A stretch of DNA of 60,197 nucleotides. It comes from Candidatus Bathyarchaeota archaeon (GTDB lineage Archaea; Thermoproteota; CALKCG01; B24; DRYS01). The position numbers were made by a program, and so were the translations under genes. The notes beneath the pieces are model-generated. The model searched no databases. It had not been told where the DNA came from and saw nothing but the letters and a program-made list of their open reading frames with translations. Positions 7,773-23,357 of this stretch are shown here, one piece after another. Position 1 is the stretch's first letter; every line of letters starts with the position of its first letter. The stretch is taken from assembly GCA_018396535.1 (NCBI GenBank), contig JAGTQC010000009.1, forward strand, positions 1 to 60,197, read 5' to 3'.

Positions 7773-8846
7773 CTATACCCTTCTATGCTTATACTCTATA
7801 TAACATGCCCCTTCTACTGATACCATACATGGACCTATAGGGTTTAATGGTGTACAGGTAATAGAGAATAACGGGCATTCCCTAGGTTTCGCTAGACCTC
7901 TAAGAACCTCCGAACATCGACAACCCTTGGGTTCGCTATATTCTTCGAGTAGTTTTAATTCATCTTGGAAGACTAATCTAGCATCCCGATCTTCATATTT
8001 TCGTTTAAGACGCATACCTGAATTCTCTACTCTAGATAATCCTCTCCATTCAAGATCGGTATATTCAAAAACTTCTTCGATAAGCTTTAAAGCTCTAGGG
8101 TTTCCCTCCCTCCTTACAGCTCTACTATATTCATTCTCAACTTTTGCCTCTCCTCTTTTAACTTGTCTAGCAAGCATATATACGGATACTAATACATCCA
8201 AGGGCTCGAACCCCGATATTACGTGCGGAATCGGGAATCTAGATACAATTCTCTCATATGGTTCTAAACCTATTATCGTGCTCACATGTCCAGGATCTAT
8301 AAATCCATCTATCTTAACTTCACCTAGAGAGAGTAACGCTTCGATAGCTGGAGGTATACGTCTATGACAGTTTAAGATATAGAAATTTCTAGGCGGATCA
8401 GATAATATCGTATATGCTGTAGATGGAGCAGTTGTTTCAAAACCTACCGCTAAGAATACTACATCCCTATTAGGATTCATTTTAGCTATCTCGACTGCAT
8501 CATCAATACTATAAACTATACGTATATCCGCCCCATCTCCTCTAAGCGTAAGTAAGCTCCTTCCCCTAATTCTAACCCTAGCTGCATCGCCATATGTAGT
8601 TATGATCTTCCCCCTCGCTGCTAACACCATAGCTTCCATATATTCTCTAGATGTTGTAACACATATCGGGCATCCTGGACCTGCTACAAGCTCTATACCA
8701 TATGGCTCAAGCAACGTATCCAGACTATACCTTACTATGGTATCTTGATGTGTACCGCATACATTCATAAACTTAGCCTTAATGTTGAGATCCTTAATCT
8801 TTTCAAGGATCTTATTAGCCGTGGATTTATCCCTAAACCTAAACAT
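7773..8846 (-). CDS. hypD: [NiFe]-hydrogenase maturation protein HypD
   Basis: CGTH, GPGCPIC, GFETT, PGHVS and C-terminal Fe-S cysteines; start probably MFRFRD. Confidence 0.95.
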   Translation of the reverse strand: MFRFRDKSTANKILEKIKDLNIKAKFMNVCGTHQDTIVRYSLDTLLEPYGIELVAGPGCPICVTTSREYMEAMVLAARGKIITTYGDAARVRIRGRSLLTLRGDGADIRIVYSIDDAVEIAKMNPNRDVVFLAVGFETTAPSTAYTILSDPPRNFYILNCHRRIPPAIEALLSLGEVKIDGFIDPGHVSTIIGLEPYERIVSRFPIPHVISGFEPLDVLVSVYMLARQVKRGEAKVENEYSRAVRREGNPRALKLIEEVFEYTDLEWRGLSRVENSGMRLKRKYEDRDARLVFQDELKLLEEYSEPKGCRCSEVLRGLAKPRECPLFSITCTPLNPIGPCMVSVEGACYIEYKHRRV

Positions 8847-8848
8847 AG

Positions 8849-9223
8849 CTAGACTTCGATACATATACCTTCAATAACACAATCTCTACCCTTAACAAGC
8901 TTCGATATATTATTACATCGAGGGCATCGAACGATCGGAGGTGAATAATGGTATAACGGGTTATCCTTACACTCGACTATCCATTGGTAATTACACTCTA
9001 TACATTTAGCTACGGCATCCTCTTCTGATACGGAAAATACTACTCCATTTAAACTAGGCTCCATACTAGCTATAGCCTCTAGAGAGAACTTAAGCTGGTC
9101 TGGGTTTATGAACGAGAATTTACCTATTCTTATCTTAATCTCTAGTACCCTCTTTGCATACCTCCTTTTAGCCTCCGCTAAGGCTATACTTATTATCTGG
9201 GATGCGATCGAAAATTCATGCAT
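8849..9223 (-). CDS. hypA: Hydrogenase nickel chaperone HypA
   Basis: MHE N-terminus and two CxxC motifs. Confidence 0.95.
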   Translation of the reverse strand: MHEFSIASQIISIALAEAKRRYAKRVLEIKIRIGKFSFINPDQLKFSLEAIASMEPSLNGVVFSVSEEDAVAKCIECNYQWIVECKDNPLYHYSPPIVRCPRCNNISKLVKGRDCVIEGICIEV

Positions 9224-9258
9224 AGATTATATCACTAGTAAAGTAAGACTGAATTAAT

Positions 9259-9933
9259 TCATAAGTTTAAAGCATGTATAATGTCATCTATACCAATACC
9301 ATCCCTGCATATAGCTTTAACGACATTAGCCCTGGGGTTTATGCTCCTTATATCTTGAACAAGTTTATCTGAATCTACCTTCATAGCTTCAGCTAGATCC
9401 ATCTTATTTATGACAACTATATCCGCATCCATAAACATAAATGGATGTTTAATAACAGTGTATGGTCCCTCTGTTATACTTATTACGACTATACGTTTAT
9501 GACTTCCCAATGGAAACTCAGCCGGACATATAAGGTTACCTACGTTCTCTATGAATATGAGATCTAAACTGGACAATTCAAGTTTTTCTAAAGCTTTCCT
9601 TATCTGACTCGCATCAAGGTGGCATTCCCTACCTGTATTAACCTGCACTGATTTTACTCCCTCCTTGAGAATCATATCTGAATCTATACTGGAAGTTAAG
9701 TCCCCCTTTATAACGGCTATACGATACCTGTCTTTAAGTCTTTTACAAATTTGTATTATTAGAGTAGTTTTTCCTGATCCTGTAGCACCCATAACATCTA
9801 TAGCTTTTATACCATAATTATCTAGAATTCTGCGATTCTCTTCGGCTAATAACATATTACGTCTGATTATACTTTCCTCCAACTCTATATCTAGTCTTTC
9901 CCCCTCATCTTCCGTTACGATAATTTTACTCAA
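9259..9933 (-). CDS. hypB: Hydrogenase nickel GTPase HypB
   Basis: GATGSGKTT, CHLDA, ENVGNLICP, NKMD. Confidence 0.95.
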   Translation of the reverse strand: MSKIIVTEDEGERLDIELEESIIRRNMLLAEENRRILDNYGIKAIDVMGATGSGKTTLIIQICKRLKDRYRIAVIKGDLTSSIDSDMILKEGVKSVQVNTGRECHLDASQIRKALEKLELSSLDLIFIENVGNLICPAEFPLGSHKRIVVISITEGPYTVIKHPFMFMDADIVVINKMDLAEAMKVDSDKLVQDIRSINPRANVVKAICRDGIGIDDIIHALNL

Positions 9934-11526: not shown

Positions 11527-14500
11527 TTATGTTTCCCCACTACGTTTACTGGTTAGGGTTCTCATACCTCTCGGTAGTCTCAATTCTTTAAATAGGTTAT
11601 CAAGCTCTACTATCTTTACATTAATACTTTTCATCTGTTCTTCTAATGGTGAAACTTTTTCTATATACTCTTCTTCACTGAGCTCTCCCAAGTTTTTCGC
11701 TACTTCGAGTTTCTCTAATTCTGAACTTATACGCTTAACCTCATCTATAAGTATATCGTAATATGGTTCAAGCTCTAAAGCTAGAGGTCTAAGCTTCCGC
11801 ATAAGCTCCTCTATTTGAGCTGTATATTTTCCACGATATTCTTCGTATATAGCTGACGAAACTTTAGGTCTCATAGATTCTAGCTTCTCTAATTTACTCT
11901 TTGCAAGTTTAATTTCATCCTGTATAAGTTTAACTTCAGCTAATATATCCTCTGGCGTTCTCTCCCTTCTTGTAGGAGCGGTTCTTACTATCTTTATCTT
12001 CAGCTTAGATTCTTTCCAAACTGTATAACCTAAGCTAAGCTTTTCGAGTCTATATAGAAATTCATGTAGAGATTTTGATCCCTTAAATTCTGCTGGAAAC
12101 TCTACTATCGGATATATAGTCTCATCCCTTCTAACACCTATAAGCCTACAGTTTATCATAAGTTGATTCTCAGATAATATAGGAAATCTGAATTCGAAAG
12201 TCCCATCTTGGAATAGCTGTCCCGTAGATTTCGTAGATCTAAGTTTGGTTGAAAATAGTTCATCGAAGTATGCGTAGAGAAGATCCCCTTCGAACATCGT
12301 AGTTCTTATAGGTAATGGAAACTCTCCTCTCTCACCGATTATTCTGAGATCTCTTTCTACGCTCCTTCTAGCTTCTCTACTTACTAAAGCTAATGTTTTA
12401 GCTTTAATAGCCGATAAATATACCGATAACAGAGGTATCAATGTACCTATAAGTAGCGATAGTAGGATTGTATGAGTCCCCCATGGTATAGATTCTAAGC
12501 TTACCAATCCTCTGATAAACGGTAATAGCATCGATATCCTATCTACTACTAGGTATAGTATATATGTTCCGAAGTACCCTATGAAGCTGGAGAATAAGCC
12601 GAGTATCATTCCCTCAGTCAGAAGCATATTGATTATAGATCTAGGAGTACCCCCTAGCACTGCTAGTATTCTAAGATCTCTATTCCTCTCGTATATGGTC
12701 GAATACATGGTGAGATAGACTATCATGCATATTATGATTATAGGTACGACAATACCACTTAAACCTAGCACTCTATACATATGAACCTCTTCGTAGGATA
12801 TCAAATATCCATCCACGGGTACACGGACATCACAGCCAAAGAGGTAGACAAGTTCCTCTGCCTTACGTACTAAATCTATATCTTCATCCGTAGGTATTAT
12901 GAAAAGCCAGGGTATATCGAAAACCTTTATACCTGCCACCGTCATGGGTAAACTGTTCATGGTAACTATAATTGTATGATCCGGATTTTTGAACATAGGC
13001 TCCCCATCTGGCCTTCTAACTTCGGTTAAAGCACCTGGATTAAACAAACCTTTGACCTTCACTCTACCTACTGGTATATGTATGTCACCATCTGGAGTCC
13101 ATAGAATCAAGTTGACCTGTATAACTTCTCCTATCGGTATACCAAGAGTTGAAGGTATGAGTGCGGCAGTCTCATTGGATACTAGATATCCACCCAGTAC
13201 GTAGGTATCTAGCTTATATAGTTTTGCAAAAATCTCTGGATCTATACTATAGACCTTCATCATACTCCAACTCATATCTCTGTAGATTATCTCAGCTTCA
13301 GCGCTTGCAACTCTTTCAAACGAGAAATCTATATTAGCCATACAGTATGATATATTAGCGATCCATTTCTGCGTACTCAGCCATACTATTGTATCCTGGG
13401 TTATAAATCGTTTCTCGTATATATCCGTGTATAAAGCTATAAATCTACCGTAGGAAGCTTCGAAAGGCTTTCTCTCGGTCTCCATGATACCATGCATACC
13501 TATTACTCGAACGAAGGATATACACGCTCCTACCACAATGGCTATACTTAAAACTATCATCAGTGTACGATGAATTCTACTTTGAAGATTTCTTATTGCT
13601 AGGTTTATAGGTAGCTCTACCTTGGATGATGTTATCAAAGCCAATAGATATAGGAATATGAATGATATAGTTCCGGCTGAAAAACATGCTATAGCAGAAG
13701 AAACGGGTTCTATACTTGATATCTTCGTACCGAGAAGTGCTGATGTGAACATTATAAACCCTGCTCTAAGCTCAGGTAATGTATAGAAGAACACGCTCGC
13801 TAATATGAAGAATAGGGCTATATGGATTGGAAACTTTATTCTCTCCTTTCTAATGGTTAGATTTAGTATCAATGCTGAAAATCCATACGAAAAGGCTAAG
13901 GCTACAAACACTCCTATAACTACTGTCCTATCTTGATTACCGAGCTTACTATCCAGATTTAGAAGCTTAGTTTGTAGAATGCTTATTGTGAACATAGCTT
14001 CACGATACAGTCTCTTATCAAATAATGTATCTAGATATGATAGGTACGATCTTATAGATTCAGCTTCCCTTTCTTCTTCGTATAAATCTAATCCTATCCT
14101 AGAATACCATTCCACTTTATCGAGTGTTCTTTTTATCCACTCGTTAAGGCTATCGAATGTGTAAATCTTCATCCAATTTACAAGATTATCAGTTTCTCCT
14201 ACAGTTATAGTTGTCGTGTATCCTCTATAGACAACTCTCCCCATAGTCCTTGAGATAGCTAACCTTATAGGGTAATCTAATGGTACAAAGTAGACGCCTT
14301 CGTACGCTGGGTTACTCGCTGTTACTCCTATAGGTATAGCACTCGGCTCTACTATTAGGTCAAGTTTAATAGGATTGTTATAATTCGAAAATGGATCTGC
14401 GCAACTTATGTTTACAAGCTTAGCTTTAGCTAACGTTACTATGAACCTATACACAGTTCTATTACTGTATTCCATCAATACTTCGGGATCGATACTTAAT

Positions 14501-14886
14501 CCCGTATATCTCGTCTCCTCTCCTGTTCTGATAGCTGAATGTCTAACATTCTCTATCCTAAATTTTTGTATACCTGTAACTATGTAATCCCCGTATACCG
14601 TTAGACCCCTAAGCGATGGGGGATTTATCGATCCGTTGATGATGAACTTATACTCTATATATCCAGATCCATTAGTTAAATCATCTATCGTTAAAGTTGA
14701 AAACTCCAATTTTAAGCGTAAATATGGTATTGGGGCACCCTTTACAGCATTGATAGCTAATACCCTGATGACATATTCTACGGTTTTCGCACTATCAGAG
14801 GCGTAAGCAGCGAAGTTTAAGTTTAATAGAAGCTGAATAATGATCATCATCAGGATAGGTAAAATAATCCTCTTTTTACGCATCAC
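11527..14886 (-). CDS. FtsX/MacB-like ABC permease with C-terminal cytoplasmic CdvA-like coiled coil
   Basis: Signal peptide, ectodomain, several TM helices, LAIRNLQSRIHRTLMI and YERNRDLRILAVLGG...EG motifs; C-terminal ~125-aa helical domain with two SHOCT/CdvA-like motifs. Confidence 0.85.
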   Translation of the reverse strand: MMRKKRIILPILMMIIIQLLLNLNFAAYASDSAKTVEYVIRVLAINAVKGAPIPYLRLKLEFSTLTIDDLTNGSGYIEYKFIINGSINPPSLRGLTVYGDYIVTGIQKFRIENVRHSAIRTGEETRYTGLSIDPEVLMEYSNRTVYRFIVTLAKAKLVNISCADPFSNYNNPIKLDLIVEPSAIPIGVTASNPAYEGVYFVPLDYPIRLAISRTMGRVVYRGYTTTITVGETDNLVNWMKIYTFDSLNEWIKRTLDKVEWYSRIGLDLYEEEREAESIRSYLSYLDTLFDKRLYREAMFTISILQTKLLNLDSKLGNQDRTVVIGVFVALAFSYGFSALILNLTIRKERIKFPIHIALFFILASVFFYTLPELRAGFIMFTSALLGTKISSIEPVSSAIACFSAGTISFIFLYLLALITSSKVELPINLAIRNLQSRIHRTLMIVLSIAIVVGACISFVRVIGMHGIMETERKPFEASYGRFIALYTDIYEKRFITQDTIVWLSTQKWIANISYCMANIDFSFERVASAEAEIIYRDMSWSMMKVYSIDPEIFAKLYKLDTYVLGGYLVSNETAALIPSTLGIPIGEVIQVNLILWTPDGDIHIPVGRVKVKGLFNPGALTEVRRPDGEPMFKNPDHTIIVTMNSLPMTVAGIKVFDIPWLFIIPTDEDIDLVRKAEELVYLFGCDVRVPVDGYLISYEEVHMYRVLGLSGIVVPIIIICMIVYLTMYSTIYERNRDLRILAVLGGTPRSIINMLLTEGMILGLFSSFIGYFGTYILYLVVDRISMLLPFIRGLVSLESIPWGTHTILLSLLIGTLIPLLSVYLSAIKAKTLALVSREARRSVERDLRIIGERGEFPLPIRTTMFEGDLLYAYFDELFSTKLRSTKSTGQLFQDGTFEFRFPILSENQLMINCRLIGVRRDETIYPIVEFPAEFKGSKSLHEFLYRLEKLSLGYTVWKESKLKIKIVRTAPTRRERTPEDILAEVKLIQDEIKLAKSKLEKLESMRPKVSSAIYEEYRGKYTAQIEELMRKLRPLALELEPYYDILIDEVKRISSELEKLEVAKNLGELSEEEYIEKVSPLEEQMKSINVKIVELDNLFKELRLPRGMRTLTSKRSGET

Positions 14887-14887
14887 C

Positions 14888-17800
14888 TCACCCCTCCTTA
14901 GCTATCCTTCTAAGCTTTTCAGTATACTCTGCCTTCAACTTCCTATATATTTTCTCTTCTATTTCTCCGTTAGCATAAAGTCTTTCAAGCTTACTGAGCA
15001 TACTCTTCAACTTAGAGTATTCTGCTGAAACCTCTCTAGTTCTATGTCTCCATATAAACGCTAAGGCGACCCATATCCCTGTGAATACACCCATATACCC
15101 GTATAGGTTTACTATGAATCCGCATCTAGCTGAGAGAATAGTCGTATCTGTAAGCTCTACTCTATCTCTATACTCATAAAGGCCACTGAGTACATGTACT
15201 TCATATATACGGTTTAACGGAAGCTTAACTCTTACAACATCAATCCCTCTTTGCTCGAACCTCAACGTAAATACTTTCTCCTCAAGTCTATACATTGGTG
15301 TTGTCACGATTCTCACATGAGTAACCTCTACTATACTATCTCTTAACGTATTCAACCATAAATCTAAGGGTATAATAGTTAAGGATACTACTTTTGCTAC
15401 AACGTTAACCTCCTCGATATCTTGCGTTATCTCTATAGAATCTTGCGAATATACTAGTTCACCAAGATATTCTACTCTTATAGAGTATATCCCAGAGGGT
15501 ATATAGTTAAAGGTTGTATACCCATGGATATCAGTATATCCTATGCGCATTACGCCCTTCTCAGGTTCTATAATATATACTGTCGCGTTATATAATGGAT
15601 CATTCTCTAGATCTACAACCTTAACCTTTACGTTAAGGGTTACCAGGGATAGATTGAAAGCTTCACCATCCATTTGTATGTTTATACATTGTTTAAGGAA
15701 GATTTCACCTAATCCTCCCACGACGTAAATAGTATATGTGCCGTTAAATACATCATCTATCTTCGCCCATCCATCTATTCCAGTTGTATTAGCATAAGTT
15801 ATATGTTGGTTATCGTTAGATACTAAGACCACCAATAGGTTAGGTAGAGGTTTACCGAGTGAATCCGTTATCTTAACCCCTACATCATATGCCCATGTGC
15901 GTATTGGTATTACGGTGCTACTCTCTATTAACCCCTCCCAATAGCCTATAAGCTTAGAATCTGCTAAAATCCTAACGCAATATAGTCCTGGATCTAGTTT
16001 TGCTTTGCAGTAGCCAGTTTGGTTTAGAGTTAACGTATAGATTTCCCTCTTATACTCCATGGATTCAATGATCATAGATATGGGATACCTAGTTGGTATA
16101 GTAGAGTTTCCATCATAATCGACCGCTCTGAATGTGATATCTACGAATGGCAATAGGTATGGTAATCTTGTGGTTATCGGAAAATACGCATAGCTATTAC
16201 CTACAGATGAATTTATGAAAACTGTCAATAGATAATTCCCTTCTCTAGTGAACTTTAAATGCCATATTAAATCGTAAGTTGATTCATATCTAAGATTATA
16301 CAGAATTCTCGTAGTTTCTTCTAAACTCTCCATATGTCTTGTATGAGATTCTATTGAAATTGTTACGTTATCTATATCTACTAGAGGTATCAGATTTATT
16401 TTAAATTCAAATTCTCTATCTACTTCTATCGTAGATGGTGATATAATTGATATCAGGATAGGTGGATTCTTAATATATACTATGGGTCTATATTTCATGT
16501 TAGTTAAATAGTTCGTAAGATTCATCCTAGTAATAGGTGTATTAACTATTTGGAGTCTGCAGCTATATTTCTCTATTAAAGAAGTGGATATAGGTATTCT
16601 TTGAAATGCTATTAAATCGTAACTAGGTATATCTGATTTAAGAATTATACGTGAAATCAATTCACTAGGCTTTAGATAGATTATAAGTCCTTCCTTACCA
16701 TCTTGTGATGATAGATATATTAGATCTGATGTAGGGATGGACACTCCTAACCCTGCTCTCGGTATATATAGTTCCTCTGTTGTATTATAAACATAGCATT
16801 TATGGAATAAATTCTTCGGTAGAAGGATATGAATAGGTATCATTGTACCTGTTTCCATACATTTCACGTAGATTTCTGAATCTATGTATGGTGCGTAAGC
16901 ATAAAACCTTATTAAGACGTTAAATTCTAGTTTACCATAGCTTGTACTGTATCTAACTTCCGCCATAAGTGGTCCTTTGATTAGCTTCCATTCATCCACT
17001 CTATCTAAGCTTATGGAATCTATGGTCGATCCGTTAGTAAGTATAAGTCTAATATTGGGAAATCCCCATGAAGGATCTATTAAATCAACTCCTTCAATAC
17101 TATCAATTAACCTAGATATACCTACACTTGAATTCACATTAACATATGCTTTATAGAAGCTATTCTCTATAACTACATATTTTTCGTTGATAATATTTGA
17201 TACCTTAAGATCGGTAGTTACATTGTATGTCTCTCTAGGTTTAGATAATGAATAATATAGCCTATAAGTCTTATTTTCATATCTGCTTATATCTATAGGA
17301 AATATCATTTTTACATATTTATAATAGCTTGTATCAGGATAATATTCTGCTTCGATTATCTGGAAAGGTATTGTAAACATGTTATTATCAATCAATTTAA
17401 GACTGCCATTTATTGCTATACCAAAAGAGAACAAAGCACTTATTTCTACGTACTCTCTATGATAATCTACCGGCAAAGTATTATTTATATATATCTCTAA
17501 ATAATTCTCCTCTTCTATTACTTTTTCAACTAACAATTCATAAATCATATCATCCTTAATAACATCTATATGGAAAGATGCTAGTTTCGATCCAGTTTTA
17601 CTGATAACATCTACTCTATACGTACCGTTAAATATATTTTTGAAAATGGCAGTACCGGTTGCATCAGTTATATTTCTATATATTATCGACTTAGAGAAGT
17701 TTCCTAATAAATTTAAAATCACTTTACAATCTGATAATGGGGTTTTGTTCCATCCTAATATTTTTATCTTAAAATCATATAAAAAGCATTTAATATTAAC

Positions 17801-19567
17801 GAATGTAGGTCTATATATAGGTATAATTTCTTCTCCTATTATACTTATATTTTCAAACAATATTGTTAACTTATATATATCTGGATATACTTGGATATAT
17901 TTAAAACCTGAACTGTTAACCGAGGAAATATATAGATATTTAGAAGTTAACCCTTCAAGTTTTATCGAAATTACATTCAAACTATTATCTATTTTATCTT
18001 CCCCATCAAAATCTAGAAGTTGAATGTTTAAATCTACATATGGCATAATAGACGGTAAAGTTACGTTTAATTGTATAAATGCATATGATACATTAACTTG
18101 ATTATATAATAATATAGTTACTAAATACGATCCTTCTTTATTAAATTTTATATTCCAAGAGTATCTCTTTATATCCCCCTTCTTTAATTCTCCTATATAT
18201 GTTGCAGTTAAATTTAAATATGGCTTTAGATCATCTTCTAAACGATAACATGTAACATTTAACCATAGATTGCGCATTCTTTCATAACATATTACTTTAG
18301 TTTTTAAATCTATATTAGTATCAATTATGATAGATAATGGAGCTTCAGCTTCTATTTTAGCGAAAGGCTTTTTCAAATCAATTTTTAATCCTTGTTTAAA
18401 AAGTAATAGAAGAGCATCTAAGTATTCCTTACTTAACTTATTCTTTGTCACTCTAAATATTGATTTATACATTATATATCCTGATTTTGGTAATGTTGTA
18501 TTATTTGCTTGTAAAGCTAATATTATATAATCTACGGCTTCTGATTGTATTATCAATCTAGATGTGGTAAAATTTATAGGTTGAAAATAGATTATAAATC
18601 CATATTCATCATTGTATAAATATATAAGATTTGAAGAGCTATAAGAAATTCTACCTTTTATTGATGTTAAATCTAATTCTATATTCGAATTATATAAATA
18701 CAATTTTGTGAATACTCCTTTAGGTATTGCGAAGTATAATGGATATATGAACTTGAATTTAGAGAAAGCATCGCTATACAGCATACCTTCGTATACAATC
18801 GTAGGATTATATGCGAAGAATTTGAAAGAGCCTTCTATTCGTACAAAATCATATGTACCATTATATTGTACTTCACTCACTAGTGTACCGTTCAACGTTA
18901 TCCGTAATTTTGGATAAATAAATCTATCATTCGTTATAACACCTAGATCTTCTGAGTGTAGATATACTCCTGGAAAACTTACTATAGGATCTATGATGCT
19001 GTTTCCCTCAATATCTTTTATAGATAACCATTTTATACCTCGAGTAGAATTTTTTTGAATTTCGATATTATAGAAACTATTTTCTATATTAATACTTATA
19101 TTCTTATCTTTAACTATTAAATCTGATTTAATATTGTATGTATATACATATTTATTTGTAGCAGAATATTCAAGTATAAATTTCTCTAGCTCATTTTTAG
19201 CAACACTAGCTAAAAATGTTAGACGTAATGTTTTATAGTAAGGTGTTCCTTTATAAAATTCTTCATTTAAAATTTGAAATGGTACAGGTAAACCTTCACT
19301 GTTTTTCAAAGATATACTTCCATTTATCGCTTCTCCATAAGAAAATTCTACATCTATAAAAATAGGTTCGTAACTTAGATCGATTGGTAAGGTATTATTT
19401 ATAATAATCTCCCTTGATTCATATCCAGTATATACCTTCTTTATATCTATAGGTGGAGGCGGAGGATTAATCTGTGTATATGGGTAATAGTATTCAGCGA
19501 ATAAAGGAGTTATAAATGTTAGCATTAAAATTATAAAGTTTATTATGAATATATATTTTCGTTTCAT
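14888..19567 (-). CDS. 1559-aa type I membrane surface protein: two ~640-aa repeats, carboxypeptidase-regulatory/Ig-like domains, C-terminal TM and SHOCT-like tail
   Basis: Signal peptide; repeated INNTLP[IV]D...AINGS...PFQI...IENSFY; repeated TDxxG...NGTY beta-sandwich motifs; many N-x-S/T sequons; TM then KLERLYANGEIEEKIYRKLKAEY. Confidence 0.85.
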   Translation of the reverse strand: MKRKYIFIINFIILMLTFITPLFAEYYYPYTQINPPPPPIDIKKVYTGYESREIIINNTLPIDLSYEPIFIDVEFSYGEAINGSISLKNSEGLPVPFQILNEEFYKGTPYYKTLRLTFLASVAKNELEKFILEYSATNKYVYTYNIKSDLIVKDKNISINIENSFYNIEIQKNSTRGIKWLSIKDIEGNSIIDPIVSFPGVYLHSEDLGVITNDRFIYPKLRITLNGTLVSEVQYNGTYDFVRIEGSFKFFAYNPTIVYEGMLYSDAFSKFKFIYPLYFAIPKGVFTKLYLYNSNIELDLTSIKGRISYSSSNLIYLYNDEYGFIIYFQPINFTTSRLIIQSEAVDYIILALQANNTTLPKSGYIMYKSIFRVTKNKLSKEYLDALLLLFKQGLKIDLKKPFAKIEAEAPLSIIIDTNIDLKTKVICYERMRNLWLNVTCYRLEDDLKPYLNLTATYIGELKKGDIKRYSWNIKFNKEGSYLVTILLYNQVNVSYAFIQLNVTLPSIMPYVDLNIQLLDFDGEDKIDNSLNVISIKLEGLTSKYLYISSVNSSGFKYIQVYPDIYKLTILFENISIIGEEIIPIYRPTFVNIKCFLYDFKIKILGWNKTPLSDCKVILNLLGNFSKSIIYRNITDATGTAIFKNIFNGTYRVDVISKTGSKLASFHIDVIKDDMIYELLVEKVIEEENYLEIYINNTLPVDYHREYVEISALFSFGIAINGSLKLIDNNMFTIPFQIIEAEYYPDTSYYKYVKMIFPIDISRYENKTYRLYYSLSKPRETYNVTTDLKVSNIINEKYVVIENSFYKAYVNVNSSVGISRLIDSIEGVDLIDPSWGFPNIRLILTNGSTIDSISLDRVDEWKLIKGPLMAEVRYSTSYGKLEFNVLIRFYAYAPYIDSEIYVKCMETGTMIPIHILLPKNLFHKCYVYNTTEELYIPRAGLGVSIPTSDLIYLSSQDGKEGLIIYLKPSELISRIILKSDIPSYDLIAFQRIPISTSLIEKYSCRLQIVNTPITRMNLTNYLTNMKYRPIVYIKNPPILISIISPSTIEVDREFEFKINLIPLVDIDNVTISIESHTRHMESLEETTRILYNLRYESTYDLIWHLKFTREGNYLLTVFINSSVGNSYAYFPITTRLPYLLPFVDITFRAVDYDGNSTIPTRYPISMIIESMEYKREIYTLTLNQTGYCKAKLDPGLYCVRILADSKLIGYWEGLIESSTVIPIRTWAYDVGVKITDSLGKPLPNLLVVLVSNDNQHITYANTTGIDGWAKIDDVFNGTYTIYVVGGLGEIFLKQCINIQMDGEAFNLSLVTLNVKVKVVDLENDPLYNATVYIIEPEKGVMRIGYTDIHGYTTFNYIPSGIYSIRVEYLGELVYSQDSIEITQDIEEVNVVAKVVSLTIIPLDLWLNTLRDSIVEVTHVRIVTTPMYRLEEKVFTLRFEQRGIDVVRVKLPLNRIYEVHVLSGLYEYRDRVELTDTTILSARCGFIVNLYGYMGVFTGIWVALAFIWRHRTREVSAEYSKLKSMLSKLERLYANGEIEEKIYRKLKAEYTEKLRRIAKEG

Positions 19568-19573
19568 AGATGT

Positions 19574-20392
19574 TCACCAGTTTTCTATTGCATTACTAAG
19601 TTCTATAATTTTTATATCTGTTTCTTCAATCTTTGTTTTTAATTGGTTTATTTTTCCTTGCACTTCCATGAGCTTTCTCTCTACATCTACTCTTTGCTTC
19701 GTATAGTAGTTATGATCGTATTCTCCTACCATAAATCTTGCCCATAATTCTTTTAGTCGCTCTTCTAGTTCAGAAGCTTCTCTTTCTAATTCAGACATTT
19801 CTCTAAGAAGACCATCTTTTTGATTAAACCAATTTTCAGTTATTGAGCTTAGAAAATGCTTTATAAAATCCTTATTTTTAACATTATTTTTATTTTTAAT
19901 GTTTTCTTCTATATAGCATGAAGCTATGAAGATTTTTGTATCTACATTTAGATCCTCAGATAGGCTTTGATTAATTTTAACTAGGGTGTCATTTAATTCA
20001 TTCTGTTTTTGTTTCAGATTTCTAATTTTTGATTGTAACTGTATTGTTTCAGGAGAATATCTACTTGAAGTATATTCATATGGCTTAATTTCCGGAGTAG
20101 ATTCTATTTCTAATCTTATTTTTTCAAGTTCTGTAAGAACATTTATTTTAAGATCCTCTAATTTAAATCTAGTTTCAAAATATTCTTCCACGACTTTTAA
20201 TAATTGAGACATATATTCTTCACGTAGAGATTGGAAGACAGATTTAGATATCTCTCTATGAGAACTAAGTTCGTCAAGTTTTCTTAATCTTAGAACTATA
20301 CCCTTTATATTTTCGCATATATTAGTGAATTTTGCCAGAAGTTCTTTTCCTTTTTCTATAGGATCTATAGGACTGCTATAAGCTGAAGCCAT
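19574..20392 (-). CDS. Soluble CdvA-like coiled-coil protein (no PRC barrel evident)
   Basis: All-helical; motifs LRKLDELSSHREISKSVFQSLREEY and LKELWARFMVGEYDHNYY resemble the two helical-hairpin motifs of CdvA. Confidence 0.7.
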   Translation of the reverse strand: MASAYSSPIDPIEKGKELLAKFTNICENIKGIVLRLRKLDELSSHREISKSVFQSLREEYMSQLLKVVEEYFETRFKLEDLKINVLTELEKIRLEIESTPEIKPYEYTSSRYSPETIQLQSKIRNLKQKQNELNDTLVKINQSLSEDLNVDTKIFIASCYIEENIKNKNNVKNKDFIKHFLSSITENWFNQKDGLLREMSELEREASELEERLKELWARFMVGEYDHNYYTKQRVDVERKLMEVQGKINQLKTKIEETDIKIIELSNAIENW

Positions 20393-20419
20393 ATCATGTT
20401 GAAATGTGTTCCTTAGCGA

Positions 20420-20427
20420 TATTTAAA
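20420..20427 (-). promoter_or_regulatory. TATA box of the three-gene operon
   Basis: TTTAAATA on the minus strand about 28 bp upstream of ATG 20392. Confidence 0.6.
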
Positions 20428-20471
20428 TGTTATATATATAATTAGGATCTAGGTAAGTTGCCCCATTATGC

Positions 20472-20541
20472 TGTAGGGTGGTCTGATTGATGATATTCAA
20501 TCATCAATCTTAGCCGAGAGTAGTCTTCATCCCACCCTATA
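20472..20541. ncRNA. Putative structured small RNA (C/D-box-like on the minus strand)
   Basis: Terminal stem 20472-20481/20532-20541 enclosing a perfect 10-bp hairpin 20485-20494/20500-20509. Confidence 0.35.
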
Positions 20542-20623
20542 TAGATATTATCTTCTCATAAGTCTTAATAAGCGTAAACATTTAAGTAGCCATACTAGAT
20601 TTATTCTCCGGATGTGTAGGGGG

Positions 20624-21496
20624 ATGTCTTCGAGACCATTTAAGCTATCCGTCATATCAGATGAAGTCTCTCAGGATCTAGTAAGGGTTGCAGAATTTGC
20701 TAAAAAATTTGAACTTGACGCTATAGAGATACGGACTATATGGAATAAGCCCCCTCATCAGCTACTCGACCATGTAGATGAGATAACTGGTATATTAGCA
20801 CGTTATGGTCTTAGAGTGTGTAGCATAGCTTCTCCATTCTTTAAGTGTAATATAGATAGCAAGGATGAGTATCTATTACATCTAGACATACTGCGTAAAT
20901 GCTGTGAACTTGCTAAAAGGCTCGATGCAAATATAGTTAGAGGATTTACCTTTTGGAGAAAAGGAAAATACGAGGATTACGAATCTAAGATAATTGAATT
21001 ATTCCAGAAGCCTTTAGAAATAATCGAAGATGAAGGAATTGTCTTAGCCATAGAGAATGAACCTGCGACTTTCACTACGAATGGTAGGTTAGTATCGATG
21101 ATAATAGAGAAATTATGTTCCAAATATGTGAAAGCTGTATGGGATCCTGGTAACGATATAAGTGATCCATATGGAGAGATACCATACCCAGATGGATACA
21201 ATTATATAAAGAAGCACGTAATCCATGTTCACATTAAAGATGCAAAGAAAGTTGATGGAGAAGTTATACCAGTACCTATAGGGGAGGGGGATGTAGACTT
21301 TGTAGAGCAGTTCAAAGCTTTAATGAATGACGGATATAGAGGTTATCTATCACTCGAGACACACTGGAGGCCTGGGAAAAAACTTACAGAAGAACAAATA
21401 GTCAGACCTGGCGGAGCCAGTTTTTCTGAAGCAGGGGAAGAAGCGTCCGATATATGTATGCGTAATCTTATAAAGATTCTAGAATCTATCATATAG
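20624..21496 (+). CDS. Sugar phosphate isomerase/epimerase (xylose isomerase-like TIM barrel)
   Basis: IENE, WDPGN, HVHIKD, SLETH. Confidence 0.9.
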   Translation: MSSRPFKLSVISDEVSQDLVRVAEFAKKFELDAIEIRTIWNKPPHQLLDHVDEITGILARYGLRVCSIASPFFKCNIDSKDEYLLHLDILRKCCELAKRLDANIVRGFTFWRKGKYEDYESKIIELFQKPLEIIEDEGIVLAIENEPATFTTNGRLVSMIIEKLCSKYVKAVWDPGNDISDPYGEIPYPDGYNYIKKHVIHVHIKDAKKVDGEVIPVPIGEGDVDFVEQFKALMNDGYRGYLSLETHWRPGKKLTEEQIVRPGGASFSEAGEEASDICMRNLIKILESII

Positions 21497-21653
21497 ACTG
21501 TTGTTTAGAATAAATAAAATTTCGAAATATTAATTTTTATATTTTAATAAATTATTTAAAATAAATTATTTGTATAACATCTTTTTTACTTTAATATATT
21601 AAGAATTGTTACCAACATCGGAGTATTAACCCCCATAGTAAAGTTTAAAAGGA

Positions 21654-22601
21654 TTGTATGTTATCGATTATCTAGGCTATACCTTGAAGTATAGGTGCGA
21701 TCTAGGGTTAAATTCGATATTATTCATTTTAGCTTTGCTATCTATTTCCATTTTCCTTACCAATATGGTATCCTACGGGTATATCGTAAGGTTTTCTGGA
21801 TTACCTTCATCTAATAGAGCGGTAGTTTTAGATCCGTTTAATAGGCAGTTCAAGAGTATAGATGGATATCAAACTAGTATAAACGCTATAATCGAATATC
21901 TTAGATTAGCAAACTACACAGTAGAATATTACAAGGATAGCGAAGTTTCACTCGATCTATGGAAAGATATATGCTCTGGTAATTACGGTGTTGTTTACCT
22001 TAATACTCATGGCTATGTCAATGAGGATGGATATGTATATGTATATTTGGGAGAATTAGTAGATGAAGAATCTATATCGGATGATAAAGGTATCCTTCAT
22101 CTTCCACTCGAAGAAGGTATGAATGAAATATACATCGTCGTGCTCCCAGAGTTTATCAGATACTATGGTGATATGGCCGGAAAACCATTGGTATTCATAG
22201 ATGCCTGCTTTTCAGCATACAATCCTACGATGGCTTCAGCATTTATAGATGTAGGGGCAGGATGTTATATAGGTTGGAGTGGGTCTGTAGGCGTAGCTAT
22301 GGGTGCTAAAATTGATGCAGAGTTCTTCGGGTATTTAGCTAGAGGAGATACCATATTTGTAGCGTTATCTAAATCTGGTATAGATCCTATAACAACATCT
22401 CGGCTTGTAGCTTATGGTGATCCATATATGGCGCTTGTAGATACCGGTTACAGAGGCTCATTACATATGATAATGTCTACTATATTCTTTCTTATATTAT
22501 CAATCTTACTTATTATACTAAGTTTCAAAAAACCTAGATATGTATATGGATACCTACACCGTGTTCTAAGATGGCTCGCCAATCTATTACATATTGCATA
22601 G
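21654..22601 (+). CDS. Membrane-anchored extracellular clan CD (caspase/gingipain-like fold) cysteine protease-like protein
   Basis: N-terminal hydrophobic segment, VVYLNTHG and VFIDACFS dyad motifs, GAGCYIGW, YGDP, C-terminal TM helix; start uncertain. Confidence 0.7.
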   Translation: MYVIDYLGYTLKYRCDLGLNSILFILALLSISIFLTNMVSYGYIVRFSGLPSSNRAVVLDPFNRQFKSIDGYQTSINAIIEYLRLANYTVEYYKDSEVSLDLWKDICSGNYGVVYLNTHGYVNEDGYVYVYLGELVDEESISDDKGILHLPLEEGMNEIYIVVLPEFIRYYGDMAGKPLVFIDACFSAYNPTMASAFIDVGAGCYIGWSGSVGVAMGAKIDAEFFGYLARGDTIFVALSKSGIDPITTSRLVAYGDPYMALVDTGYRGSLHMIMSTIFFLILSILLIILSFKKPRYVYGYLHRVLRWLANLLHIA

Positions 22602-22744
22602 TGTGAAATGCTTATATAATTTCCAAATCCTAGGCAATATTACTTGGATATATTCATAGGTAGCTCTAGGAAATTTAGGCTTAACTTCAAAATCATACAC
22701 TTAGTATAAATATACCATAAGGGTATTATACCATTTTAACTTCA

Positions 22745-22784
22745 TACTAGATAATCTAGTAGAAATCTCTGGAAAAGGTATTCC
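22745..22784. promoter_or_regulatory. Two operator-like palindromes upstream of the ESCRT-III gene
   Basis: TACTAGAT-A-ATCTAGTA (22745-22761) and GGAA-AAGGTA-TTCC (22771-22784). Confidence 0.4.
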
Positions 22785-22796
22785 TAAAACAAAGAC

Positions 22797-23357
22797 ATGC
22801 TTGACCACGGAGAATTCAACTACGAGAAGTTCAGACGCAGTATATTCAGATTATCGCATAGACTTAAGGTTGAACAGATTAGATTGGAACAGACTATCAA
22901 CGAGATGAAAGTTTATCTTCGTGAGCTCTACGATAAATGCGAATCTGCTTTTAAGTTTGGTCAACCTTTAAGAGCAAAAATGTATGCCGATGAAAGCGTT
23001 AAGGTTGAGGAACTAGTAAGACAGTTACTACATGTTCAGCTTATCATAGAGCGGGTATTAATTAGGCTTGAAACCTTAAAAGAGGCAGGTAAGATATTAT
23101 CGCTCCTATCTCCTATCAGTGAAGCCTTAAAGTATGCTGGTGCGATTATCTCAGGCGTTATTCCAGAAGCATCTAAGAGAATAGATAAAATGTTATCGGA
23201 TATAGAGCCTCTCCTAAACATAACTACGAATGCGATCGATAAAAGCGAAACAGAAAGGATATTAGAGGAAGCTAAAGCCGCGGTAGAGGAACGAATTAGA
23301 ACTATACTCCCGGAGCCTCCGAAAGAGTTATATAAGCTTCTAGAGGAAACCGGGTAA
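22797..23357 (+). CDS. Archaeal ESCRT-III / Snf7 family protein (short CdvB paralogue, no wH domain)
   Basis: RAKMYADE...QLIIERVLIRLETL...ISGVIPEAS core, then ERILEEAKAAVEERIRTILPEPP with a MIM2-like proline motif. Confidence 0.85.
   Translation: MLDHGEFNYEKFRRSIFRLSHRLKVEQIRLEQTINEMKVYLRELYDKCESAFKFGQPLRAKMYADESVKVEELVRQLLHVQLIIERVLIRLETLKEAGKILSLLSPISEALKYAGAIISGVIPEASKRIDKMLSDIEPLLNITTNAIDKSETERILEEAKAAVEERIRTILPEPPKELYKLLEETG

Follow-up and report, generated by a model that had tools for sequence, protein, structure and literature searches.

The stretch of DNA analysed here, hereafter the window, is a contig of 60,197 nucleotides (C14; GenBank JAGTQC010000009.1) from the Candidatus Bathyarchaeota assembly GCA_018396535.1, an archaeal genome of 1.41 Mb that is 93% complete and belongs to a class with 16 genomes in our collection, distinct from the larger class of genome G034. 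The window carries three adjacent genes, here named A, B and C, encoding a soluble protein, a surface protein and a giant permease, whose products share short helical hairpins resembling the polymerising domain of CdvA. Their features are as follows.

19574-20392, minus strand: gene A, 272 amino acids, soluble all-helical homolog of the CdvA domain, two hairpins split by an insertion (Pfam, structure model, fold and profile matches)
20168-20335, minus strand: first hairpin of A (h1), residues 20-75 (profile comparisons)
19643-19801, minus strand: second hairpin of A (h2), residues 198-250, with invariant R219 and E224 (profile comparisons)
14888-19567, minus strand: gene B, 1559 amino acids, single-pass surface protein (sequence features, domain scan)
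15650-19411, minus strand: tandem duplication of about 630 amino acids in B (comparison of the protein halves)
14897-15043, minus strand: cytoplasmic tail of B, h1 hairpin only (homolog alignment)
11527-14886, minus strand: gene C, 1119 amino acids, giant MacB/FtsX-type permease (Pfam FtsX, E 1.5e-8; model with a predicted local distance difference test (pLDDT) value of 80)
12367-13626, minus strand: MacB/LolE-type core of C, residues 421-840 (Foldseek and fold comparison)
11575-11961, minus strand: cytoplasmic tail of C, a complete CdvA-like three-helix domain with h1 and h2 (fold alignment, Pfam)

An earlier note, made from the DNA alone, had described these genes as a tight operon, and its genes, strands and spacing were reproduced: the gaps are 6 bp between A and B and 1 bp between B and C. 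The note also called the genes co-transcribed, which is probable judging from the two features that agree with it, spacing and conserved gene order. A scan for promoters and terminators gave chance-level counts, its models being of bacterial type and the host an archaeon. For C, the ATG at position 14883, one codon downstream, is a possible alternative start and is the one used in the Atlas record.

The structure model of A (pLDDT 89) is all-helical from residue 11. Its best fold match among 48,161 chains is CdvA of S. islandicus (PDB 9s9g; Z 12.9, root-mean-square deviation (rmsd) 1.7 over 124 residues; runner-up Z 10.9), a score that is borderline taken alone, but the A-family profile independently has CdvA as its top PDB entry (9s9g, E 4.5e-4), matched over two segments that correspond to the two hairpins. 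Against the Pfam CdvA model A itself gives E 6e-4, and 19 of the 32 family members match. A fold search of A in the Atlas returned only template modelling scores below 0.5, and a related-locus search seeded with A found no match. The domain scan gave no PRC barrel in A, and inspection, made without a profile, revealed no E3B (ESCRT-III-binding) tail, the protein terminating in helix 227-271. The possibility that A is the genome's own CdvA was thus rejected, A having neither PRC barrel nor C-terminal tail and true CdvA being encoded on contig C8. In some loci the A domain stands in frame behind other membrane segments, namely an MFS fragment, a protein with eight transmembrane segments and a DUF362 protein (L048:4400-6145, L060:3054-4940, P0034, P0038), and these are either real fusions or assembly artefacts. 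A longer A homolog accompanied by neither B nor C (L204:6101-7147, P0016) has a family B DNA polymerase two genes away and unannotated genes around it, and may belong to a mobile element.

B is predicted to consist of a hydrophobic N-terminal signal, a beta-rich ectodomain with immunoglobulin (Ig)/carboxypeptidase-regulatory repeats and 34 N-glycosylation sequons, a C-terminal transmembrane helix and the cytoplasmic h1 tail. Residues 53-678 are 30% identical to the block that follows (E 5e-67), and it is this tandem duplication that makes the present copy giant; the homologs measure 308-1559 amino acids, usually about 890, with a short form of 308-480, and great length was therefore rejected as a feature of the system. 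Constant across the homologs are the Ig-like repeats, the transmembrane helix and the cytoplasmic tail, whose hairpin is present in 22 of 22 homologs with a mean column identity of 61% versus 25% for the whole protein. B stops right after the hairpin, with no E3B-like tail detectable by inspection (no profile was used).

C is built from an N-terminal anchor, an extra ectodomain, three extra transmembrane helices, the MacB core, a cytoplasmic alpha/beta domain and the CdvA-like domain. The core has the plan that defines type VII ATP-binding cassette (ABC) systems, one transmembrane helix, a large ectodomain and three transmembrane helices. It matches LolCDE/MacB in Foldseek with E about 1e-9 (best matches LolE/LolC, 11-15% identity) and FtsX, MacB and YtrF with fold Z 14-17. 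The ATPase-coupling helix is intact (residues 732-760; G745, P748 and E758 invariant). The cytoplasmic tail aligns with CdvA residues 68-195 (128 residues, Z 10.5, rmsd 5.0), 16 of 22 homologs match Pfam CdvA in this region (best E 6e-7), and h2 is the best conserved part of C (0.59 vs 0.41 for the ectodomain). C h2 also fits Vps23 of ESCRT-I (Z 9.4, rmsd 1.2, 60 residues), not above the other hairpins. C ends in a short basic tail that does not look E3B-like by inspection, again without a profile; the Atlas feature search gave no match for the alpha/beta domain, and no peptidase-like ectodomain was detected. In the C proteins of family f3 (L040, L042, L044) a zinc ribbon follows the CdvA-like domain at the terminus.

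The earlier note held that all three products carry the motif L..L......GE[IL]....Y..L...Y. All five peptides are indeed present (at A36, A213, B1524, C999 and C1057), but an exact fit to the consensus as written is confined to B and to true CdvA, encoded elsewhere in the genome; the fit of the remaining four sites is loose. Profiles built from homologs of each hairpin were searched against the 2612 open reading frames of this genome, and the A-h1, A-h2, B and C-h1 profiles each had another operon member or CdvA as best non-self match (B found CdvA with E 7e-5, for instance, and A-h1 found B with E 2e-5); for C-h2, CdvA (E 0.014) was tied with an 88-residue SHOCT-like protein (E 0.01). Profile-profile comparison separates two classes: h1, comprising the first hairpin of A, that of B and the first of C, and h2, comprising the second hairpins of A and C. 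A and C thus have both classes and B has h1 only. Within classes, hhalign gives 95% for A-h1/B, 97% for A-h2/C-h2 and 91% for A-h1/C-h1, versus 1-16% for control helical segments, one of which reached 34%. A-h1 also resembles both h2 hairpins (88%), as expected for a duplicated unit. As judged from sequence, the five hairpins are pieces of the CdvA three-helix domain, and their likeness goes beyond chance. That the motif derives from CdvA, is common to the three products and is conserved is borne out by profile, fold and conservation evidence. The SHOCT family (PF09851), named in the note beside CdvA, is the poorer match of the two: it matches three of the 22 tails of B and as many of the 22 of C, all below cut-off (16.8 bits for the B tail and 15.4 for the C tail, with more than 27 needed).

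Two observations on similar hairpins elsewhere may be mentioned here. The cytoplasmic domain of Asgard ribophorin I (OST1; PDB 8whn), which has two similar hairpins, weakly matches A and the C tail (profile E 0.12, fold Z 9.8-9.9) and is possibly another CdvA-type tail on a membrane protein. A stand-alone protein of 88 amino acids with one GvpG/SHOCT-like hairpin (L092:2021-2287, i.e., G000:C7:194020-194286) is a possible further partner.

In the CdvA crystal the head-to-tail contact of the protofilament is made by A90, L94 and I100 with I149, M153 and I156, mutation of these residues stops polymerisation, and the PRC barrels form the cross-strand contacts of the filament (PMC12818579). In our alignment A90, L94 and I100 fall in h1 and I149, M153 and I156 in h2, so that the two hairpin classes correspond to the two halves of the head-to-tail contact. 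The equivalents of L94 and I100 are hydrophobic in all A (32/32) and all B sequences, and that of M153 in all A and all C sequences; h1 of C has a one-residue insertion. A complex of the C tail, A(168-272) and the B tail was also predicted, and since the control scored equally high the result was used neither way.

Gene A was found in 27 of 401 Thermoproteota genomes; it occurs in 12 of 301 genomes of another class and was not found in two of the four families of the same order. All three genes stand in the order A-B-C at 26 loci (24 labelled loci together with L067 and L205) from nine families, with unrelated flanks, and one carrier genome holds two copies of the operon. Family f10 was not counted as a carrier, because its A-B fragment (L051, G113:C69) looks near-identical to that of G011, a genome of another family, and may come from a mis-binned contig. 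The close homologs of permease C are labelled Candidatus Bathyarchaeota and, in one case, Nitrososphaerota. Rare and conserved, the three-gene operon A-B-C belongs to thermophilic archaea that have not been cultured, and the co-occurrence of the three genes expected by the earlier note holds. In the literature found, which left most subscription papers outside the search, the operon is not described; CdvA, its kinship with the ESCRT-I steadiness box and other CdvA-like families are covered there (PMC11188069; PMC12818579).

No copy of the operon contains an ATPase gene. Elsewhere in the genome there are two LolD-type ATPases (C7:205067-205816 and C9:128239-128964) with no adjacent FtsX permease, 71% identical to each other and both scoring best against LolD, as well as a lone FtsX protein of 194 amino acids (C10:131250-131834) lacking an ectodomain, a second giant permease lacking a CdvA tail and five DUF6785-like genes encoding 630-700 amino acids. 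The ATPase pair is 65-80% identical across classes, and its subfamily is present in 76 of the 401 genomes of the phylum and in 25 of the 27 carriers of A, a co-occurrence overstated because the carriers are kin (the other two are G350, with a partial ATPase copy, and G367, with a broken A). The small FtsX gene directly precedes that of ATPase-2 in 20 of 35 genomes. A related-locus search with the ATPase as query was dominated by generic ATPases and gave one useful locus. In a deltaproteobacterium, a single run of genes encodes a 1759-residue FtsX, a 704-residue protein that is OPT-like by eye (no Pfam match), a small FtsX and both ATPases. The giant FtsX of this run is homologous to C (hhalign 97.6%) and its small FtsX matches that of our genome (E 7e-21). 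The co-occurrence of the orphan ATPases and the small FtsX with C, and a bacterial operon that unites them with a giant homolog, suggest that C is probably not ATPase-less; gene context makes it look most like a giant subunit of a type VII system whose genes are dispersed. In several genomes of family f19 the gene of ATPase-1 adjoins a separate gene for a PRC-less CdvA domain (Pfam CdvA E 1e-12 to 1e-14; L108:2472-3071, L114:710-1318, L120:2892-3506, L123:153-788).

Taken together, we favour the reading that A, B and C form an envelope-spanning complex that is clipped together by the hairpins and has a dispersed type VII ABC system as its basis; we give this a probability of roughly 0.55. B and C would sit in the membrane with their hairpins on the predicted cytoplasmic side, and CdvA-type h1-h2 contacts would link A to C, and B to either of them; that the contact used by CdvA is also what clips B, A and C together is likely. 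B, having h1 only, could do no more than cap the chain, and as PRC barrels are missing, a short single-stranded oligomer is likelier than a double filament of the CdvA type. It is also rather probable, with slightly less assurance, that the small FtsX and the two LolD-type ATPases are a motor shared genome-wide by several interchangeable giant subunits, among them C, whose ectodomain it would drive. More tentatively, and at somewhat less than even odds, the ATP-driven ectodomain of C may act on or with that of B to capture an outside substrate (glycan or peptide) or pass it on, perhaps to OPT/DUF6785-like importers. Confidence thus falls from binding through motor use to substrate, and no step would need ESCRT-III. 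The assembly tag of the earlier note, linking permease and surface protein to a soluble scaffold, remains plausible from the shared conserved motif, the binding itself being a prediction.

Several points weigh against this reading. All Pfam CdvA and SHOCT scores are under the curated cut-offs, and helical bundles reach Z near 13 by chance, which is what leaves the fold match of A to CdvA borderline. The equivalents of A90, I149 and I156 are charged or variable, so about half of the hydrophobic contact of CdvA is kept. The operon is not always whole: A-B and C are separated in G004 and G012, and in G097 B-C has no adjacent A. The new setting of C in G004 and G012, among DUF6785/DUF6784 genes and beside a second giant FtsX, speaks in favour of the reading. 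On the motor side, the kinship of the carriers inflates the ATPase co-occurrence, and the two ATPases may work with the other giant permeases alone. A putative sugar-binding domain in B (PcRGLX-like, 0.89-0.91 in the Atlas) is a lead only and is absent from the short forms of B.

Upstream of A, on the opposite strand, the window contains the following features.

20612-22601, plus strand: two genes between A and the ESCRT-III gene, for a xylose-isomerase-like TIM barrel protein and a membrane-anchored protein with a weak CHAT-domain match (Pfam-type domain scan)
22797-23357, plus strand: divergent third ESCRT-III paralog, 186 amino acids, probably outside the system (NF041008, E 1.3e-17; NF041005, E 1.1e-15)

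The earlier note's Snf7/CdvB gene about 2.4 kb away is thus a real ESCRT-III gene, 2405 bp from A. The CHAT (caspase-like) match, at 21654-22601, has E 0.002, and the gene keeps its place between A and ESCRT-III throughout the three genomes of the discovery genus. Elsewhere in the window, at 7773-9933, are hypD, hypA and hypB-like hydrogenase maturation genes, judged by the look of the sequence only. The canonical cdvB-cdvA-cdvB-cdvC cluster with true CdvA is located on contig C8, and the idea that the operon is part of the cdv cluster was rejected. In G034 an extra cdvB and PRC-CdvA-like gene pair (L046:7591-8892), apart from the main cdv cluster, lies 3.3 kb upstream of the operon.

ESCRT-III occurs within 3.5 kb of the operon in six genomes, the three of the discovery genus, G034, G392 and G104, always on the other strand and on either side; the neighbours in other genomes are 25-27% identical to that of the window and are not its orthologs. 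Beyond the discovery genus this proximity amounts to one or two events, with a rough chance of 0.10-0.26 or 0.004-0.04, and the small residual signal may reflect an occasional link. No ESCRT-III was found in ten carriers from four families (91-99% complete) with a model that detects even the divergent copy at 22797-23357; five of the ten were rechecked with Pfam Snf7, a less sensitive model. Some of these carriers are labelled Thermoprotei or Thermoproteales. Their Vps4_C matches were not taken as Vps4, being mostly AAA proteins of 720-890 amino acids (shorter matches lay outside this check). G011, which is near-complete, has its ESCRT-III genes some 200 and 600 kb from the operon. The winged helix of CdvB is the part bound by CdvA; it gave no domain match in the ESCRT-III at 22797-23357, whereas the paralog on C8 has one. 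CdvA binds CdvB via the E3B peptide (PMC12818579), of which, as noted above, A, B and C show no counterpart. The ten carriers without detected ESCRT-III, the missing E3B tail and winged helix and the non-orthologous neighbours together argue that ESCRT-III is not required, and the neighbouring gene is probably only incidental. The working link to this gene and the vesicle cargo loading suggested in the earlier note find no support for the same reasons, nor does ESCRT-III share in the conserved co-occurrence of the three genes.

It is nevertheless conceivable that the complex recruits this or another ESCRT-III, loading B and C into vesicles or remodelling the membrane; the six cases of proximity and the resemblance of the hairpin to the ESCRT-I steadiness box (PMC11188069; Z 9.4) speak for this, but the evidence just given makes it quite unlikely. 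Less doubtful, though still unlikely, is that true CdvA, or A in its place, gains its hold on the membrane through the hairpins, B and C serving as anchors in CdvA-type polymers at a division or growth site even without ESCRT-III; the operon would then tie envelope remodelling to the division ring or growth zone, as an archaeal counterpart of bacterial FtsEX and a candidate CdvA tether. The CdvA filament presents no surface for membrane binding and presumably depends on as yet unknown tethers (PMC12818579), and the membrane proteins B and C have compatible hairpins. The f19 gene pair of ATPase-1 and PRC-less CdvA domain, and carriers of Thermoproteales or Thermoprotei label with no detected ESCRT-III, would also fit. 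Against it stand the patchy distribution of A across the phylum, the other class and the order, the operon's never lying beside the cdv cluster, its two copies in one genome, and the failure to find a CdvA equivalog match in four of five ESCRT-less carriers.

Somewhat better placed, yet improbable as well, is the explanation that the hairpins are generic SHOCT/GvpG-like tags for self-oligomerisation or membrane proximity, on genes clustered for a shared function, with no binding through the hairpins. The module does recur on unrelated proteins (the Asgard ribophorin I tail, the 88-residue protein, the in-frame fusions of the A domain), and A and C, each with both halves, could polymerise with themselves; B, by contrast, has h1 only and would depend on a partner with h2 should the CdvA contact be used, three module genes stand in one operon with almost no others in the genome, and the tails are conserved in all B and C homologs. 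Finally, C could be a LolCDE-like extractor or exporter of B or other surface proteins with A as cytoplasmic chaperone or adaptor, in keeping with the top Foldseek matches to LolE/LolC and the preference of the ATPases for LolD. As B retains a transmembrane anchor and a conserved cytoplasmic tail, the matches at 11-15% identity fit the whole MacB family, and the context of C outside the operon is importer-like, this is very improbable.

Among known systems, the hairpin-clipped complex that we favour is related most clearly to Sulfolobus CdvA (PF18822; PDB 9s9g/9s9h/9s9i; PMC12818579), the best sequence-profile and fold match of A and the C tail, with the same three-helix domain and two hairpins, h1 and h2 being where the filament-contact residues of CdvA map. 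It differs in that A has a long insertion between the hairpins, neither PRC barrel nor E3B tail, and a place outside the cdv cluster, and in that the domain is fused to a membrane protein (C) or cut to one hairpin (B). With type VII ABC systems (MacB, LolCDE, FtsEX, YtrEF, YbbAP) C shares the four-helix core, the ectodomain after the first helix, the coupling helix and LolD-like ATPases as candidate partners, whereas the added ectodomain, transmembrane helices, alpha/beta domain and CdvA-like tail, the archaeal host, and candidate ATPases and second permease subunit encoded away from C set it apart. C is homologous to the giant permeases of the system comprising giant FtsX, small FtsX, two ATPases and DUF6785 (OPT-like) proteins, and the other members are present in the genome, but only C has a CdvA domain and the partners A and B. 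The ESCRT-I steadiness box, the Vps23/Vps28/Vps37 headpiece (PMC11188069), joins three different proteins by a helical hairpin that may be homologous; here, however, two of the partners are membrane proteins, the match (Z 9.4) spans 60 residues only, and no UEV, Vps28 or ubiquitin components were seen, no search having been aimed at them. SHOCT and GvpG (PF05120) are also short bi-helical motifs at cytoplasmic C-termini, whereas CdvA spans the longer two-hairpin domain and SHOCT reaches few of the tails. The CdvA-like arCOG03733/03734 of Thermoproteales and the Glu-rich Bathyarchaeal CdvA-like proteins (PMC11188069) are PRC-less and lie outside the cdv locus as well, but none of them, compared by description only, is described in fusion or in a cluster with an FtsX permease or a surface protein.

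If the favoured reading is true, the polymerising domain of CdvA would be a reusable two-part clip for membrane complexes that serves beyond division and works without ESCRT-III. Such a finding would be relevant to the shared ancestry proposed for CdvA and the ESCRT-I headpiece, and to the way in which CdvA is brought to the membrane. It would also name the subunits of a so far undescribed type VII ABC system of archaea: A, B, C, the small FtsX and the two ATPases. Excised from their proteins, the parts are small, soluble and thermophilic, which makes the main claim amenable to in vitro study.

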